From: Dictyostelium discoideum
Taxonomy: Eukaryota
Assembly: GCA_000004695.1 (NCBI GenBank)
Contig: CM000152.2
Span: 832,001 to 896,000 of the forward strand
DNA: 64,000 bases
Direction: 5' to 3'
The notes below the pieces were generated by a model that had not been told where the DNA came from, searched no databases, and worked only from the letters and a program-made list of their open reading frames with translations. The position numbers and the translations under genes are program-made. Shown one piece after another: positions 4,437-56,067 of this stretch. Position 1 is the stretch's first letter; every line of letters begins with the position of its first letter.

Positions 4437-5470
4437 TTATTGGTAAACTTCTGATTCTTTATTTAATACACAGAATAAAGACATAAATTTATAATTTGGA
4501 ACACCTAATTGAGAATCTAATTTAACGTCACCATTAGCACCACCACCATTTTTACTGACGATTTCAATGAGACTGTTGTAAATTACATTTTGGTAGTTAA
4601 ATTTAACGCCTTGTCTTGAGACTCTTTGATGTTTAATTGAGCCACCATCGACCACTTGAGAAATGGTGAAACAACCGGCATTGGTTGAACTGAAACGAAT
4701 TAAAAATGAGCCAATTGGTTGACCATTTAAACGTGAAGCTGCTTCAGTGGTGTCTAAATCACCATGGAACCATTTTTGAGAGAGAATCTCTCTAACAGTG
4801 TCCATAATTGAATGACCTGGAGCTGGTTCAGGTACTGGACCGAAAAACTCTAAAATCTTACCAAACTTTTCAATGTTTACAACGGTTTCAACACCAGTAC
4901 CTTCAGATTTTGGAGATTCTGCCAAAACTGCTTTCAAACATTTGATATTTAAATAGTCGATTGAAGTTTTATCACATTGATTACGAGCTGGTGCCTTTGA
5001 CCAATTGCAAAGTGCATCAATGAATGCCTCCCAAGGTACCTCTTGCTCGGTGAGGAAAGATTTCTTCCAAAAGTCTCTACCATTCAAATCAGAGATAGCG
5101 GCATCAATGATAACATGATCCAATGCACTAATGATCTCTTTGAAGGATGGACGACTAATTGGTTCTTTATCCCAACATTTTTCAATTAATCTTCTTAATG
5201 AATCCAAACAATCATTTGGAATTGGTGGTCTTTCATGTTTGACACAAACTGCCTCTCTAAATTTCTCTAATTCTCTATGATGAGAAAATGGTTCTTTTCT
5301 TGTTAATATTTCCCATAATACAATACCAAATGAATAAACATCACTTGATTCATTAAATTCTTTAAACATCATAACTTCTGGTGCCATATAAAGTGGTGTA
5401 CCTTTTGCACTTGATTGATCTTTTAACATTTTATGTTTTTGTTTTAATGCACTTAAACCAAAATCACAAA
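4437..5470 (-). CDS. SH2-domain protein kinase, exon 3/3 (DFG...APE kinase lobe plus C-terminal SH2 domain)
   Basis: Acceptor aaaaag|TT gives ICDFGLS, then ...GTPLYMAPE. The C-terminal SH2 signature is WFHGDLDTTEAASRL...GSFLIRFS. The stop is at 4437-4439. Confidence 0.8.
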
Positions 5471-9240: not shown

Positions 9241-9373
9241 GGAAGTATTTAAAGAAAAAAAGTAAAAAATTAAGAAAATTTATTTAAGAAATTAAAAGGG
9301 AGATTAAAAGATTTGATGGAAGAAGGAAAGGTGTAAAAAAGAAATTTGGAGATAAAAAAAGGAAAAGGAAAAG

Positions 9374-40939: not shown

Positions 40940-41043
40940 CTTTTTTATTATTGTTATTTTTAATTTAAAAAAAAAATGAAAAGTATTAGTAATTTGATTA
41001 TTATTATTATTATTATTAGTTATTTTTTATTAATTACACTTAC

Positions 41044-41637
41044 TTGGATCCCATGATTTTAAAACTATAACATTATCAATTGAACCAGATGGAGATTCGA
41101 TTTGGGTGATTGACATATTTGGAGATTTAAAAGTTGTACCTTCATAACGATAGAGATAAGAGGTTTTAGTTGTATTGAAATAAATAAAAGTATTGGCTAT
41201 ACTGAATAAGAGTAAAAGAAAAGCAAAGAAAGTATTCAAGAGGTCAATTGAGTAGCCTAATAATAAAAGATTCAACAATAGAGCCAATCCATAGATTGAG
41301 CTCTTATAATATTGACTATGATGAAATGTTGAAATGTTTTCTTGAATTTCGTCAAACTTATCCAATGGATAATTAAAAACATCCTTTATCTTCTCACTAA
41401 CTGGTTTCTTTCTCATTTTTGCTGGTGTATTTGGTGCATTACTATTAACACTTCCATTTGGTGTATTTGGAATATGTAAATAGTTACTATTGGTACCATT
41501 AAATGATTTTTTAAAATTTGATTCAGGTGTTGCTAGAATATTATTATTTGTTGTTGTAGCTCGGAATTTACTATTAGTACTTGATATTAATGATTCATTT
41601 GGATAGTCTATCATTTCATCATCTTCTCTATTATTTA

Positions 41638-41671
<34 letters not shown>

Positions 41672-42217
41672 GACAGTTGGTTGTGATACAGGTTCTTGTG
41701 AAGGTTGTGTTGTGGGTTGTGGCTGACTAAAGAATTTATTAAAAAAGTTACTATTGGAGGTAAGAGTTGGTATTGATGGGGCTGGTGTAGGTTGTGGAGG
41801 TTGTGGTTGTGGTTGTGGTTGTGGTTGTGGTTGTGGTTGTGGTTGTGGTTGTGGTTGTGGTCTTTGTGTTTGTAATTGTGATTGTGAGAGGGGAGGTTTG
41901 TTATTATAGTTTTGACTTGTGTCTCCAGATATGGAGTATCTAAGTGATGAACGTTTTAATGTTGGTGTTGTTTCATTTAAAAATGCTGGGTTGTTATTGT
42001 TTATACTAGTATTAAAATTTATTGGATTTGTACGTTCATTGTTGCTGTAAAAGGAGGATGGTTGAATTGATTGTCTACCTGGTGTTCTTGATGGTGGTCT
42101 CTTTTGAGGATTATTACCACCAATACCTATACTATTTGTGTTGTTTCCGCTCAAACTAAATCTAGGTCTATTATTATTACTATTACTATTACTATTACTA
42201 CCAAAATTATTATCCAT
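41044..42217 (-). CDS. Multi-pass membrane protein with N-terminal Asn/Pro-Gln-rich low-complexity region, exon 1/2
   Basis: ATG at 42217 on the minus strand. It contains a (PQ)10 tract and poly-N, then hydrophobic helices (GLALLLNLLLLGYSIDLLNTFFAFLLLLFSIANTFIYF). The donor is A|GTAAGT. Confidence 0.6.
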
Positions 42218-42644
42218 TATTATCTTTTAAAAGATTGGTGTGTGCGCATAAATTTTATTTTTTGTATCTTTTTTTTTTTTTTTTTTATTTTTTATTTTTT
42301 TTATTTTTTTTTATTTTTCAAATTTAAAAAAAAATAGGGGGTGAAAAATGAAAAAAAAAATGAGCGGGAAATTTTGCTTTTATTAATTTTTTATAATTTT
42401 GCTTTCATTAATTTTTTTTTTTTTTATTTATTTAATTTTTATTTTTTATTTTTTTATTTTTTTAATTTTTTTTTTTTTTTTTTTTAAAATTTTCAAAATT
42501 GAAAGTTTTTTTTTTTTTTTTTTAATTTTTTCAAATTTTTTATTTTTTTCAAAACTCACTCCACTTTCTTAACACATTTTATATTTCATCTTTTTTTTTT
42601 TTTTTTTTTTTATCTATCATTTTTTTACTAATCAAATAATAAAA

Positions 42645-42675
<31 letters not shown>

Positions 42676-42944
42676 TAAACACACCCCACATAGAGATATA
42701 AAATTAGAAAAATTCGAAAAAAGAGTAAAATTTTAAAACCCAAAAAAAAAAAAAAAAAAAAAAAAGAAATATAAAAATCTTACAAATAAAAAAAACACTA
42801 AATATCTGAATATTGTTGATCAATTTACAAAATAATACACACAAATAAAAACACACTGACCCACCCCCGCACTAAATATCACAATTGCTCCCCACACAAT
42901 CACGCACAATAACCGTATCACACGATAACACATAAAAGAGATTA

Positions 42945-42963
42945 ATGAAGGTGTTTGTCAAAG
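42945..42963 (+). CDS. Candidate 19-nt first exon of the SR-like RRM/CCHC gene (MKVFVK + G)
   Basis: ATGAAGGTGTTTGTCAAAG|GTAATG. In phase 1 it joins exon 2 to give MKVFVKGISEKTNKRDIEEYF, which restores a canonical RRM RNP-2/loop/helix-1 spacing (compare SRSF3 [20 protein letters not shown]). This requires an intron of about 1 kb. The model is tentative. Confidence 0.35.
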
Positions 42964-43379
42964 GTAATGAAAGAAAAAGAAAACTCGAAACCCTACCTGA
43001 CCTGCTTACCTACCTGACTCTTATTAAGAACCTACCTTTAACCATATAAATAATAATAAAAAAAAAAAAAAATTAAAAAAAAAAAAATTAAAAAAAATAA
43101 TAATAATGCCGACGATAATAATAATAGTTCCAACAACAACAAAAACAACAACAACAACAATAACAAAAGTAATAAATAGATAATACTTATTATAAAAATA
43201 AAAATAATAATAATAGTTAATAATAATAAAAACAAATAGTAATAGTAATAGTAATACTAATAGATGATACATCAATCAACACTATCCAATATTTAAAATA
43301 TAGTATTAATAAATTTTATTTTACGGTAATATTATGGAAAATGGATTGGTTAATGGATAATATCAACTATAGGCATAAA

Positions 43380-43407
43380 TAATAATAATAACAAAAATAA
43401 AAATAAA

Positions 43408-43498
<91 letters not shown>

Positions 43499-43760
43499 TA
43501 ACACCAATAGTAACAATAACAATAACAAATAATAATAATAAATAATAATAATAAATAATAATAATAATAATAATAATAATTACTAATATATGGATAAATG
43601 GATATGGTATGGACTTGGATGTCCATGGATATGGATGGAAATGGATAAATGGAAATGGATATTTTTTTATTTATTATTGTTTTGGTGGAAATTGGAATTG
43701 GATTTGGATTGGAATTGGATTGGAATTGGAATGAATGTTATTTTCTGTTTTACTTTTTTT
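43380..43760 (+). repeat. Compound minisatellite block: (AAT)n, then GGATATGGATGGAAATGGATAAATGG-type and (TGGAATTGGATT)n arrays
   Basis: Successive short-unit tandem arrays lie in non-coding DNA upstream of the SR-like gene body. Confidence 0.85.
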
Positions 43761-44006
43761 TTTTTTTTTTTTGTTTTTTGGGATTGTTTTTTTTTGGTGT
43801 AGTACATATTGGGATTGGAATCACATTCGCACCAAAAATAACAACAATCATTTTTTATCAAATACTGAATTAAGCATCAAAATATTAATATTATTTACTT
43901 TTCAAATTTAATTACTATTACATAAAATTTATTTACTTTTTTTATAATAAATAATAATAATAAATAATAATAAATATTAAATAATAATAATAATAATAAT
44001 ATGAAG

Positions 44007-44931
44007 GTATTTCTGAAAAAACAAATAAAAGAGATATTGAAGAATACTTTAACAAGATTGGTCCTGTGTTAAACGTTCAAACTGGTTCTTCTGATTTTGC
44101 ATTTGTTGATATGCAGTATGAGAGAGACGGTCAAGAATTACTAGGATTACAAGAAATTATAATAAGCGGAAAACGTGTTAAAGTTGAAAAAGCCAAAACA
44201 AACGAAGAACGAGAAATTCATAGGGAGAAATATAGAGAAAGATTTATAAATAATCATCATCATCATCATCATCATCATCACAACAACAATAATAACAATA
44301 ACAACAACAACGACAACAATAATATCACAAACTTAAACAATAATCATTACAGTAACAACAACAACAACAACAACAACAACAACGATAATAACAATAACGA
44401 TAATAACAATAACGATATGAATAATATGAGCTATAATAATAATAACAATAATAATAATGGAATGAGAGGTGAAAGCCAAGGTTATAGAGATCAAGGTGGT
44501 TACAGAGATAGTCATCGTGATAGAGATAGAGACTCTTATGGTGGTAGAGAGGGCAGCCATAGAGATGGTGGTAGATCAAACTACGAAGATAGGGACAGAG
44601 GTTACAATAACAACAGAGACCATCATCATGGTGGTGGCGGTGGTCACAGAGATCATAGAGACAGAGATTATGGTCATAGAGATGGTGGTTATGGTAATAG
44701 AGGTGGCGATAGAGACCATCGTGGCTCTGATAGAGGTGATCGTTATGGTAACGATAGAGACAGATTTAGATCAGGTGGCGGCAGAGATGGCGGCTACAAC
44801 AGAGGTGGCAATGACCGAGAAAGATTTAGATCTGACAGAAGAGACAATGGTGGTCCACCAATGAGCAAGTTTGATTCCATCTGTTACAATTGCAGAAAAT
44901 CTGGTCATTATGCTAGAGATTGTCAAGAAAG
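44007..44931 (+). CDS. SRSF3/SRSF7-like splicing-factor-type protein (RRM + CCHC zinc knuckle + RD/RG-rich), main exon
   Basis: The frame opens at 44000 and the only upstream AG is at 44005-44006. It encodes the RRM remainder (...DFAFVDMQYERDGQELLGLQEIIISGKRVKVEKA), then poly-H, poly-N and RDRD/RGG repeats, then a CCHC knuckle (CYNCRKSGHYARDC). The donor is AG|GTAAAT at 44932. Confidence 0.7.
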
Positions 44932-44957
44932 GTAAATATAAAATTTTCTAATGGGTT

Positions 44958-45011
<54 letters not shown>

Positions 45012-45099
45012 GTTAACAAATAACACCCAACTTATACTAATATTTATTTATTCATTATTTCTCTTTACTTTTTTTTTTTTTTCTCCCTCCCAAATAAAG

Positions 45100-45535
45100 A
45101 CCAAGAAATCCAAATTATGCTGATACTAAAGGTACTTTAAAGGATAGTGGTAGATTCCACCCTTATACCAATGATAGAAGAGGTAATAACTTCTCTCCAC
45201 GTAGAAGATATGATGACGATCGTAGAAGTGGCGATCATCAAAGAGAAAGAGATTTCGATAATAACGATAGTGGTAGAGATAGAGATAACTATAGCAGCAG
45301 CAGCAACAGTAATAATAATAATGGTAGTAGCAGCAGTGGTAACACTAGAAAGGATGACTCTCCAAATGACGTTGTAAGTGAAAGAGAAAGAGACAGAGAT
45401 AATTCTCCAAGAGATTATAACAGTAGTAATAACGCAAATAACAACGTTGACATTCCATCTCCAACTCAAGCCAACATTGAAAATATTTCAAAAAATAACA
45501 GTGATTCCAATGACGATCAAAGAGATAGAGATTAA
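45100..45535 (+). CDS. SRSF3/7-like protein, last exon (RD/RS-like tail)
   Basis: Acceptor aaataaag|acc in phase 2. It encodes RPRNPNYADTKG...RRRYDDDRRSGDHQRERDFD...DDQRDRD*. Confidence 0.65.
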
Positions 45536-45673
45536 TTAAAATAATCTTCTTATCTCTCAATTAATAATTATTATAATAATAATAACAACAATTCAAAAAT
45601 TAAAATTTCATTTTAATTTTTATTTTTGCTTCATATTAAAAATGATTTAAAAATAAAAACATAAATAAATATA

Positions 45674-45713
<40 letters not shown>

Positions 45714-45847
45714 AAATTCCAGGTGTTGGTTTTATTGAAAATAAGATAATTTATTTACATTCACATCTCTCAAAAAAAGATAAAGAATATTGAGAGAAAA
45801 CTTTTTTTTTTTTAAAAACCAAGAATATTGAGATTTATTTTTTTTTT

Positions 45848-48319
45848 TTACAAAACTTGTAAGTTTGAATTTTCCTGATAATCTTTGTAAAAATCTAACA
45901 TTTCTTGGGTGATACCTTTTTTAACATTACCAATTGCAGAGATGAAATGAGACATATTAATTTCTTTTGCATTAATATCTTCTTTCATTGCAGCAATTGA
46001 TGCCTCACGACAAATTGAAGTTACTTCAGCACCACTGTAACCATCGGTTAGAATTGAAAGTTGATTAATGTCAATGTCTGAAGAGTGAGGAACCTTTTTT
46101 AAATGAATATTGAATATTTCTTTTCTTGCATCTAAATCTGGTGGTGAAATATAGAGAATTCTATCTATTCTACCGGCACGTAATATAGCTTTATCGATGA
46201 TATCAGGTCTATTGGTGGCACCAATGATAGTTACATTTGTCAAAGGTTGGATACCATCCATTTCGGTTAAAAGTTGAGATACCACACGTTCAACGGCACC
46301 ACTACCTTCACCACTTCTACTGATGGCCAAGCCATCGATTTCATCGAAAAATAGAATGGATGGTGAGTTTTGGCGTGCTTTTTTGAAGATATCACGTACT
46401 GCTCTTTCAGATTCACCAACCCATTTACTTAAAAGTTCAGGTCCTTTTACTGCAATGAAATTTAAACCAGATTCAGTTGCTAAAGCTTTGGCTAATAAAG
46501 TTTTACTACAACCTGGTGGACCATATAATAGAATACCTTTGGGTGGTTTGATACCCATACGAATAAATGATTGTGGATATTTTAATGGCCATTCAATGGC
46601 TTCTTTTAACTTTTGCTTAATATGCTCTTGTCCACCAATATCTCCCCAAAATACTTTAGGTATTTCAACTACAACTTCTCTCATTGATGATGGTTTAACT
46701 TGATTCAATGCCAATAACATATCATTCATTGATAATTTAATTAATGATAATAAATTTTGAAGATTTTCTTCTTGTTTTTCTTCTTTTCCTTTTTCTTCTT
46801 TTTCAATATTAATTGATTGAAATAATTTTTGATTTTCATTTTTAATACGATTAAAACATTTTAATGATGCTTCTTTACAAAGCGATTCAATATCAGCACC
46901 AACGAAACCATGTGTTTTTGAGGCAATCATTGCTATCTCTTGTGATGTTAATTGATTTGGAATTTTTGAAAGGAAAATATTTAAAATTTGTTCTCTACCT
47001 TGTTGATTTGGAATTGATATTTCAATTTCATTATCAAATCTTCCAGGTCTTCTTAATGCTGAATCAATACTATCAGGTCTATTAGTGCAACCGATTACTA
47101 TAACTTTATCACCACCACAATTACCATTACCATTACCATTATCACCACCACCACCATCATTTTGATCACTTGTTGATACAACACCATCCATTAATGTTAA
47201 TAAACTACCAACTATACGTTTTTCAACTTCTGAACTATTATCTTCACGTTTTGGGCATAATGCATCCAATTCATCAATGAAAATGATTGAAGGTGATTTT
47301 TGTGCAGCATCTTTAAATATTTTTTGTAAAGTTTTTTCAGTCATACCATAGAATTTGTCAAGGATATCAGCACCATTGATTGTAAATAATGTTGCATTGG
47401 TTTGAGTTGCAACAATTCTTGCCAATAATGTTTTACCTGTACCTGGTGGACCATATAATAAAATACCTTTTGGTGGTTTAACTCCAAATGATTTTAATAA
47501 ATCTAATTTATAAAATGATAGATCAATTAATTCTCTAATTTGTTTAACTTGTAAATCCAAACCACCAATTGATTGAAAATTTAAATTTATATTTTTATTA
47601 TTATCAATTTTATTATTACTATTATTATTATTATTATTATTACTATTTATTGTGGATTCACAAATTAAAGTTGATTGTAAATTTGAATTAATTAATTTTA
47701 TTTTTGTTGATTCACAAATTCTAAAAATTGATTTAATAAATTCATTATCAATATTATCTTTTTTTTCTTTTAAACTTAATTTATTGAAATCTAAACTATT
47801 TATATCACAATCATCATTATTATTGCTATTATTATTACTACTATTATTTTCAATTTTATTAATTGATAATTTTAAAATTTTAAATTTTATAATATTATTG
47901 CTTAGATGAATTGTAAAGGAATTTTGAGGAATGAAATATCTACCAATGATTTGTGATAAAATTAAAGTTTCAAGCATACCAAATGATTGAAGTGATTGTA
48001 CATATTGTTGTTGTGATATTGTTTCACATTGAATTTCTAAATATCTACAATCTAATTTCGGATATATATTTGAAATTAAAAGATTGTTTGATACGGTATT
48101 TACAGATTGAAATGGTGTTTTAAATAAATAAACATAGTCACCAATTTTAACATTACAATTCTCTCTTTGAATTGAATCTAATTGAATATGTTGTGTTGAT
48201 AGTTTTTGTAATGGCCATGCTGTCATTATTGAACAGTTACTACCACTACTATTTATATCTTTATTATTACAATTAAAATAATTCCATGGTATTTCTGAAT
48301 TATTATTATTATTGTTTTC

Positions 48320-48370
<51 letters not shown>

Positions 48371-48508
48371 GTTTACTGGAACTATGTAAATTATATCACC
48401 TATTGTAATTTCATTATTTTGCATACACCTAATACTTATATACCCAACTGACGTTTTTTTAATTTGTTTATACGGTTGATCTTCAACCAATAGTTTAATT
48501 AACGACAT
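45848..48508 (-). CDS. Double AAA+ ATPase of the Cdc48 clade (Afg2/SPATA5- or NVL-like)
   Basis: A single 886-aa ORF with ATG at 48508 on the minus strand. It has a Cdc48-N-like start and two AAA cassettes. D1 has GPPGTGKT, Walker B IIFIDELD and an SRH. D2 has GPPGCSKT, ILFFDEIDGL and ATNRPD..D.A..R.GR. Confidence 0.8.

Positions 48509-56030: not shown

Positions 56031-56067
<37 letters not shown>

Follow-up and report, generated by a model that had tools for sequence, protein, structure and literature searches.

Where does the coding sequence begin in a gene whose RNA-binding domain lacks its first strand? The question is posed by a locus on the plus strand of the window, by which we mean the whole 64-kb stretch of Dictyostelium discoideum DNA analyzed here (contig CM000152.2, positions 832,001 to 896,000 of assembly GCA_000004695.1), in whose coordinates all positions are given. 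The main open reading frame (ORF) of the locus opens at 44000, right after a TAA at 43997–43999, and the translation of the main exon matches the Pfam family RRM_1 (PF00076) with 26.0 bits, only over profile positions 5–69. The main exon is thus devoid of the RNP-2 strand, as a preliminary description of the locus had stated. We propose, with a probability of about 0.9, a three-exon gene that encodes a 459-amino acid, Arg/Asp-rich RNA-binding protein with an RRM and a CCHC zinc knuckle, and whose first exon carries 19 coding bases.

The candidate exon, ATGAAGGTGTTTGTCAAAG, lies at 42945–42963 and is followed by GTAATG. Read from the ATG at 42945, at which translation would start, the coding part of exon 1 (ATG AAG GTG TTT GTC AAA G) specifies MKVFVK and the first base of Gly-7, and corresponds to RNP-2, the β1-strand of the RRM. 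On the downstream side, the interval 43874–44029 contains a single AG, at 44005–44006. Because it is the only AG that keeps the frame open, exon 2 is placed at 44007, where the coding sequence resumes with GT ATT TCT. Removal of a canonical GT-AG, phase-1 intron (42964–44006, GTAATG...ATGAAG, 1043 nt, 17% GC) would then bring the two exons together in phase: the Gly codon is split G/GT, the join reads MKVFVKGISEKTNKRDIEEYF, and the product begins MKVFVKG-ISEKTNKRDIEEYF. The preliminary description had named this exon and its donor, the opening of the frame at 44000, and the sole AG, all of which match the sequence; the correct phase that it gave for the join to 44007 is confirmed by translation, by completion of the RRM, and by the orthologues discussed below. 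The label “micro-exon” that it used is loose, since the 19 nt represent just the coding portion of a first exon, to which a 5′ leader probably belongs as well.

Because exon 1 supplies RNP-2, the spliced model restores a complete RRM. It scores 33.6 bits against RRM_1 and covers profile positions 1–69 of 70 (the Pfam gathering scores are 20.7 for RRM_1 and 20.8 for zf-CCHC), whereas without exon 1 the match begins at profile position 5 or later. RRMs from the Protein Data Bank (PDB) align gap-free from KVFVKGIS on, and KVFVKGISEKTNKRDIEEYF aligns gap-free with the RRMs of hnRNP DL and TDP-43 and with the orthologues. The spacing from RNP-2 to helix α1 is therefore canonical, in line with the earlier claim for the spliced product. 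The SRSF7 RRM structure (PDB code 2hvz) aligns over residues 1–70.

Of four independent lines of evidence for the predicted 19-nt exon, the orthologues provide the decisive one. When searched with HMMER against the full library, the translation of exon 2 retrieved orthologues with an RRM, one CCHC knuckle, and the motif PRNPxYADTRGT. Their N termini read MKIYIKGITERTDKRDIEDFF in P0002 and MTKIFVKGITDRTDKRDIEDFF in P0001, and MPRLFIGNVSDR, MPRLFVRGVSER, and MSRLYVRGVTER in more distant members. P0001, from Synstelium polycarpum, begins MTKIFVKGIT, and P0009, labeled as a Trinity transcript ORF of Protostelium nocturnum, begins MPRLFIGNVS. The D. discoideum model conforms to the N-terminal consensus of the orthologues, M-x(0-1)-[KR]-[ILV]-[FY]-[IV]-x-[GN]-[IV]-[ST].

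The gene structure itself can be compared in Acytostelium subglobosum, where P0002 (304 amino acids) is an annotated gene on DF837585.1 (GCA_000787575.2), an accession within a range that is assigned to this species (PMC4334915). Its DNA reads ATGAAGATATATATTAAGG/GTATGT ... CCTTAG/GTATAACTGAACGT. The first coding exon comprises 19 nt (5001–5019 of the A. subglobosum sequence, L001), intron 1 of 91 nt interrupts the corresponding Gly codon, likewise in phase 1, and translation of the coding sequence rebuilt from the 19-nt exon 1 and exons 2 and 3 reproduces P0002. A phase-1 intron occupies the same site in four other relatives found on Logan contigs, in which the first coding exons are 28–31 nt long; the intron lengths in L001, L002, L003, L004, and L006 are 91, 51, 59, 142, and 37 nt, respectively. 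The predicted exon–intron junction is ancient in Amoebozoa, as Acytostelium and these four relatives all divide this Gly codon. Several proteins in public collections, among them P0047 (L002 122–424), P0006, and P0010, are prokaryote-style ORF calls that read through the orthologous intron or start inside it (as in MPDTKLFVKG-REIHCLRLVLFLILFK-GISERV) and are artefacts of gene calling on eukaryotic contigs; P0047 is simply a read-through.

The exon at 42945 also exceeds what is expected by chance. Between the upstream gene and exon 2 there are 20 ATG...GT segments in the right phase, and only the 42945 segment among them combines an AAG/GTA donor with an RNP-2-like peptide. A pattern derived from the orthologues rather than from the window (ATG, zero to four codons, [KR][ILV][FY][ILV]x, and G/GTA) is present once in the window, both strands considered, and this one occurrence is the 42945 exon; when the 1.77 kb upstream were simulated 20,000 times with a Markov model, 0.04% of the runs contained it (p ∼4e-4). 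Furthermore, the 584 nt upstream of the start (plus strand, 42361–42944) are free of ATG, where composition predicts ∼5.8, and therefore the ATG at 42945 would be the first AUG for any transcription start in that stretch. An in-frame TAA at 42933–42935 precedes the start codon. Within intron 1, by comparison with this ATG-free stretch, ATGs are dense at 43590–43735.

Several observations weigh against the proposed start. The start codon lies in the context TTAATG, without an A at position −3. The acceptor of intron 1 looks weak, with AAG after (AAT)n and 35% pyrimidines in the last 40 nt, and a 1-kb intron is rare in such a genome. In word-indexed protein collections, which seem to be without this organism, the 459-residue model and its 87-residue RRM returned nothing, and exact look-ups of the full model, of a model starting at Met-42, and of both neighboring ORFs in protein collections returned nothing either. 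A metagenome scan gave 0 matches to the start of exon 2, a query able to detect genomic as well as cDNA copies.

Two other placements of the start have to be weighed against the 42945 exon. The preliminary description had offered the alternative that no upstream exon exists and that a 1-nt sequencing or assembly error in a run of six adenines hides a start at the ATG at 44001, giving MKVFLKKTNKRDIEEYF. The run lies at 44016–44021 rather than at 44015–44020 as was given there, although the arithmetic of a seventh adenine (MKVFLKKTNKRD...) is correct: one extra A restores the frame, and the MKVFLK that follows the ATG at 44001 resembles an RNP-2 strand. However, the main frame ahead of the run already encodes GISEK (44006–44020), which aligns residue-for-residue with GITER and GITDR (GIT[DE]R) of the orthologues and refutes such an error. 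The frameshifted product (MKVFLKK-TNKRD) deletes four conserved residues and shortens the β1–α1 spacing from 19 to 15 residues, its RRM_1 score of 24.1 bits (profile positions 9–69) is lower than that of the spliced model, and the introns of the orthologues sit exactly at this point. The probability left to a sequencing error is negligible.

It is likewise very improbable, if somewhat less so, that another first exon within the 1-kb region (for example 43731–43746, encoding MNVIFC with the donor GTTTTA) or a start at Met-42 is used and that the 42945 segment is a chance look-alike. The 19 further right-phase ATG...GT segments, at 43590–43801, provide candidates, and a T-rich tract at ∼43750–43795 could precede an internal transcription start; an unspliced form starting within 43800–44000 would run through ATGAAGGTATTTCTG. 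However, all 19 segments lie in repeat arrays, their donors are poor (GTC, GTT, GTG, and one GTAGTA) and none follows AG, and the five that were scored against RRM_1 reached 24.0–26.2 bits, none of them reported above exon 2 alone. A start at Met-42 removes the RRM match altogether. The 42945 exon, in contrast, matches the orthologue N termini in sequence, length, and phase, and a chance match of its kind is expected in ∼0.04% of random upstream regions. The predicted 19-nt coding exon, the ∼1-kb intron, and the phase-1 join are thus supported, and from these comparisons we infer that the 42963/44007 junction is used in vivo.

The length of intron 1 is its most unusual property. D. discoideum introns have a mean length of 146 nt according to one study (PMC3188802) and a mean of 132.6 and a median of 104 nt according to another (PMC4683709). 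At 1043 nt, intron 1 is ∼7–10 times longer than usual, which agrees with the ∼1040 nt and the 7-fold excess estimated previously. Arrays detected by Tandem Repeats Finder make up 57% of the intron. They include an (AAT)67 microsatellite (43378–43580) and short G/T-rich tandem arrays (43586–43735) with 2–7 copies overall, namely 1.9 copies of ATGGAAATGGATAA and 2.5–3.6 copies of AATTGGATTGG or a 17-mer; runs of poly-A, poly-T, and (CAA)n are also present. The earlier characterization of the intron as filled with minisatellites is therefore correct in that (AAT)n and G/T-rich arrays are found, but overstated, as the repeats are mostly microsatellites and homopolymers and the G-rich arrays are very short. 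Given the conserved insertion site, only the length of the predicted intron is lineage-specific, and it is mostly accumulated simple-sequence repeats.

Exon 1 was said to reside in a C-rich island, and indeed 42800–43050 has a GC content of 34–42% with a strongly negative GC skew (C excess), compared with 13–18% GC in the flanks. The CA-rich segment at 42840–42944 is the probable 5′ leader, and the C-rich start of intron 1 (42964–43045) carries repeated CTACCTGAC and CTTACCT motifs. We considered that these CTTACCT/CTACCT repeats, which resemble the 5′ end of U1, might sequester the donor in a hairpin, but the fold of 42935–43050 (z = −0.42) does not support this idea. An Rfam search of 42000–46000 with E values up to 1 gave no match and hence no known noncoding RNA in the intron or in the C-rich island.

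The 12-mer TTTACTTTTTTT occurs nine times in the window, compared with 0.8 expected copies. Three copies are in the gene, at 43749–43760, 43932–43943, and 45064–45075, each of which starts 34–73 nt before an AG: the copy at 43932 starts 73 nt before the acceptor AG of intron 1 (62 nt in between), and the copy at 45064 lies upstream of the acceptor of intron 2. The 12-mer may serve as a branch-site and pyrimidine signal, and the copy at 43932–43943 would then mark the putative branch site of intron 1. The other copies start at 9255, 52530, 56031, 61791, 62071, and 63021, and the one at 56031 is within an apparent intron (GTGAGT...AAAAAAG, then a long ORF). As a specific 3′ intron signal the enriched 12-mer was not retained and is suggestive only, as some copies are found in intergenic T runs. 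The first copy in the gene is part of a T-rich tract (43741–43802) that ends in TAG at 43800–43802, a candidate alternative 3′ splice site; among the 17 AGs of intron 1, the one at 43801–43802 has the highest pyrimidine content (0.78), and exon 1 joined to 43803 would give a truncated product of 29 amino acids. An A-rich tract at 43048–43110 is 72–86% complementary to the T-rich tract at 43731–43795, ∼210–270 nt before the acceptor. Pairing of the two in RNA could loop out ∼600 nt, although such complementarity is probably trivial in DNA that is 77% A+T.

Two further readings concern the intron rather than the start of the gene. The acceptor had been noted to duplicate the first 8 nt of the micro-exon, and the repeat is real: ATGAAG/GT spans the boundary of intron 1 and exon 2 (44001–44008), and ATGAAGGT has only two plus-strand copies in the window, at 42945 and 44001. 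In a wider comparison, 15 of 18 bases agree (repeat D12, 42945–42962 versus 44001–44018, 83%), and close to it lies repeat D13 (42927–42942 versus 44020–44035, 15 of 16 bases, 94%). Nothing indicates that the repeat has a meaning, and ATGAAGGT at the acceptor is most likely a coincidence layered on constraint. Because the acceptor needs AG and the conserved Gly-Ile codons (GGT-ATT) need GT, only ATGA is left as a free match. Of the window's 265 AGGT sites, 6 (2.3%) have ATGA directly in front of them, both copies of ATGAAGGT among these, which makes the repeat weakly significant. It is improbable that the 8-mer and the wider matches are a meaningful relic or signal, be it the trace of a local duplication during intron growth or an out-of-frame decoy AUG that would keep transcripts left unspliced or initiated internally from being translated. 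In its favor, the only plus-strand copies in the window occupy both key positions, D12 and D13 were found independently by the repeat search, and the ATG at 44001 opens an out-of-frame ORF of 23 codons. However, the best local alignment of the two neighborhoods scores 31, which is reached by 14.5% of random window pieces, and D12 and D13 occur in swapped order, unlike in a simple duplication; on these two grounds, we rejected the neighborhoods of exon 1 and the acceptor as a duplicated segment. The copy in exon 2 is, moreover, largely constrained coding sequence that is also present in a relative (L006, GTATTTCTGAGAGA at the same place), and the acceptor of A. subglobosum (CCTTAG/GT) is without ATGAAG, at an intron site that is older than this lineage.

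The second reading, which we regard as unlikely, if marginally less so than a meaning of the repeat, is that the long intron 1 is a platform for autoregulatory unproductive splicing, in which use of the AG at 43801–43802 or intron retention would yield peptides of 29–34 amino acids and the C-rich block after the donor may be the binding platform for the protein itself. The intron, at 7–10 times the norm, divides the RRM just after RNP-2 in a gene with an RRM and a knuckle, the AG at 43801–43802 has the best pyrimidine tract of the intron and is preceded by TTTACTTTTTTT like both constitutive acceptors, and a precedent is known from plants (PMC1636356). On the other hand, neither the length nor the sequence of the intron is conserved: it measures 37–142 nt in all five relatives examined, so that such a role would be new to the lineage. 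Simple repeats account for more than half of the intron, the T tracts and the 12-mer are also found in intergenic DNA, and the fold around the donor is unremarkable. No alternative splicing was reported for the two D. discoideum SR genes in a survey (PMC3173450), of which this gene is apparently neither. Accumulation of repeats at an ancient intron site remains the preferred explanation for the length of intron 1.

The remainder of the gene follows from the same model. Exon 2 (44007–44931) contributes the remaining RRM, an RD/RG-rich region, and the CCHC zinc knuckle, together with a His9 run and poly-Asn tracts. The His9 run and ∼60 Asn-rich low-complexity codons (44253–44460) are inserted behind the RRM, ahead of the Arg/Asp-rich region, and are missing from the Acytostelium, Synstelium, and Protostelium orthologues. 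Intron 2 (44932–45099, GTAAAT...AAATAAAG, 168 nt) contains a perfect (TA)24 microsatellite at 44961–45008. Its removal joins ...CQER to PRNPNYADTKGT and restores CQERPRNPNYADTKGT, collinear with the orthologues. The coding part of exon 3 (45100–45535) comprises the PRNPNYADTKGT motif and an RD/S/N-rich tail and ends with the stop codon TAA at 45533–45535.

The zinc knuckle at CYNCRKSGHYARDC scores 29.9 bits against zf-CCHC, and one RRM followed by one knuckle is the architecture of SRSF7 and RSZ proteins. A profile of the orthologues matches proteins named SRSF7 or SRSF7-like with E values of 1e-17 to 1e-10, in one-way matches only. The tail, however, contains 44 RD/DR dipeptides compared with four RS and no SR, and in the best 50-residue window RS/SR coverage is 8% and RD/DR coverage is 42%. 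By the definition that Manley and Krainer reportedly gave in 2010, an SR protein has an N-terminal RRM, followed by an RS domain of ≥50 amino acids with >40% RS/SR. The protein has the RRM but not the RS domain and fails this strict definition; “SR-like”, the term chosen in the preliminary description, is a fair label for the RRM and CCHC knuckle architecture, though not for a tail that is rich in RD instead of RS.

The sequence comparisons place the predicted gene in an amoebozoan orthologue group that is marked by PRNPxYADT[RK]GT after the knuckle, with which it shares the N terminus, the motif, the phase-1 intron in the Gly codon, and synteny. The wider form PRNPxYxDT[RK]GT (45100–45140; L001 5430–5470) is invariant in all aligned amoebozoan and other relatives, with Pro-122, Arg-123, Asn-124, Pro-125, Tyr-127, Asp-129, Thr-130, Gly-132, and Thr-133 as invariant columns. 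It lies outside the Pfam families matched here, and intron 2 splits the coding sequence immediately ahead of the motif, following CQER. A survey of SR proteins in 27 species lists two D. discoideum SR genes, which encode a 737-residue protein with two RRMs and a protein with two knuckles (PMC3173450). The gene described here does not appear to be either of them, and no identifier emerged when the literature was searched for a named Dictyostelium gene of this kind.

The synteny is provided by the downstream neighbor. A convergent 886-amino acid ORF on the minus strand (45848–48508) shares 64% identity with the double AAA-domain ATPase gene beside the A. subglobosum orthologue, and because this convergent AAA-ATPase gene is conserved, the locus is syntenic with that of A. 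subglobosum. The divergent upstream gene, a 395-amino acid Asn/Gln/Pro-rich ORF on the minus strand (41030–42217), is not syntenic; ribosomal S10 takes its place in A. subglobosum. On the same strand as this upstream gene, the complement of the C-rich block (42985–43046) reads ATGGTTAAAG/GTAGGT and CAG/GTAGGTAAGCAG/GTCAG/GTAGGG, a cluster of strong 5′-splice-site-like sequences.

The locus represents an ordinary gene structure, and its novelty is low, given that the exon is already found in a publicly annotated orthologue. Its value is in annotation: a protein predicted from the locus without the 19-nt segment would have no start codon and only part of its RNA-binding domain, and gene finders easily miss so short a first coding exon at a distance of 1 kb where introns are usually ∼100 nt. 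It also illustrates how far intron length can vary at one fixed site: the range is 37–1043 nt, and expanding simple repeats account for most of it. For the self-control of splicing regulators outside plants and animals, the locus would be relevant only if regulated splicing made use of the long intron.

The closest counterpart is the A. subglobosum gene, which shares the 19-nt first coding exon, the Gly codon split in phase 1, an exon 2 that starts with GTAT, the RRM, the single CCHC knuckle, PRNPxYADTRGT, the RD-rich tail, and the convergent AAA-ATPase gene downstream. It differs in the length of intron 1 (91 nt compared with 1043 nt), in its acceptor (CCTTAG rather than ATGAAG), in its upstream neighbor, and in the absence of His and Asn tracts; its second intron is located elsewhere, and none precedes PRNPxYADTRGT. 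With SRSF7 (9G8), SRSF3, and the plant RSZ proteins, the D. discoideum protein has in common the N-terminal RRM, one CCHC zinc knuckle, and an Arg-rich tail. However, the tail here is rich in RD, RG, and RE, only the amoebozoan group has PRNPxYADTRGT behind the knuckle, and the identity to SRSF7-like proteins is only ∼28–30%. A microexon is an internal exon of ∼30 nt or less that is flanked by two introns. The 19-nt segment resembles the microexons of animals and plants in that so short a coding sequence contributes an essential structural element, but it is the coding part of a first exon with a 5′ leader and hence poses no problem of internal exon definition.

With respect to intron 1, the RS, RS2Z, and SCL genes of plants, in which a long, alternatively spliced, and autoregulated intron divides the first RRM (PMC1636356), are the nearest parallel. 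In both systems, the intron exceeds the norm severalfold (400–1100 nt compared with <150 nt in plants, 1043 nt compared with ∼100–146 nt here), is located close to the 5′ end, and falls between RNP-2 and RNP-1, here directly after RNP-2; RS2Z proteins also possess zinc knuckles. The plant intron, however, follows after ∼35 residues and the D. discoideum intron after six, and whereas length, position, and alternative splice sites are conserved in plants from algae and mosses to angiosperms, only the position is conserved here. If intron 1 were nevertheless used in this way, it would constitute an amoebozoan, convergent counterpart of the poison exons of animal SRSF3/7 and of the long RRM intron through which plant RS2Z/RS genes are autoregulated.

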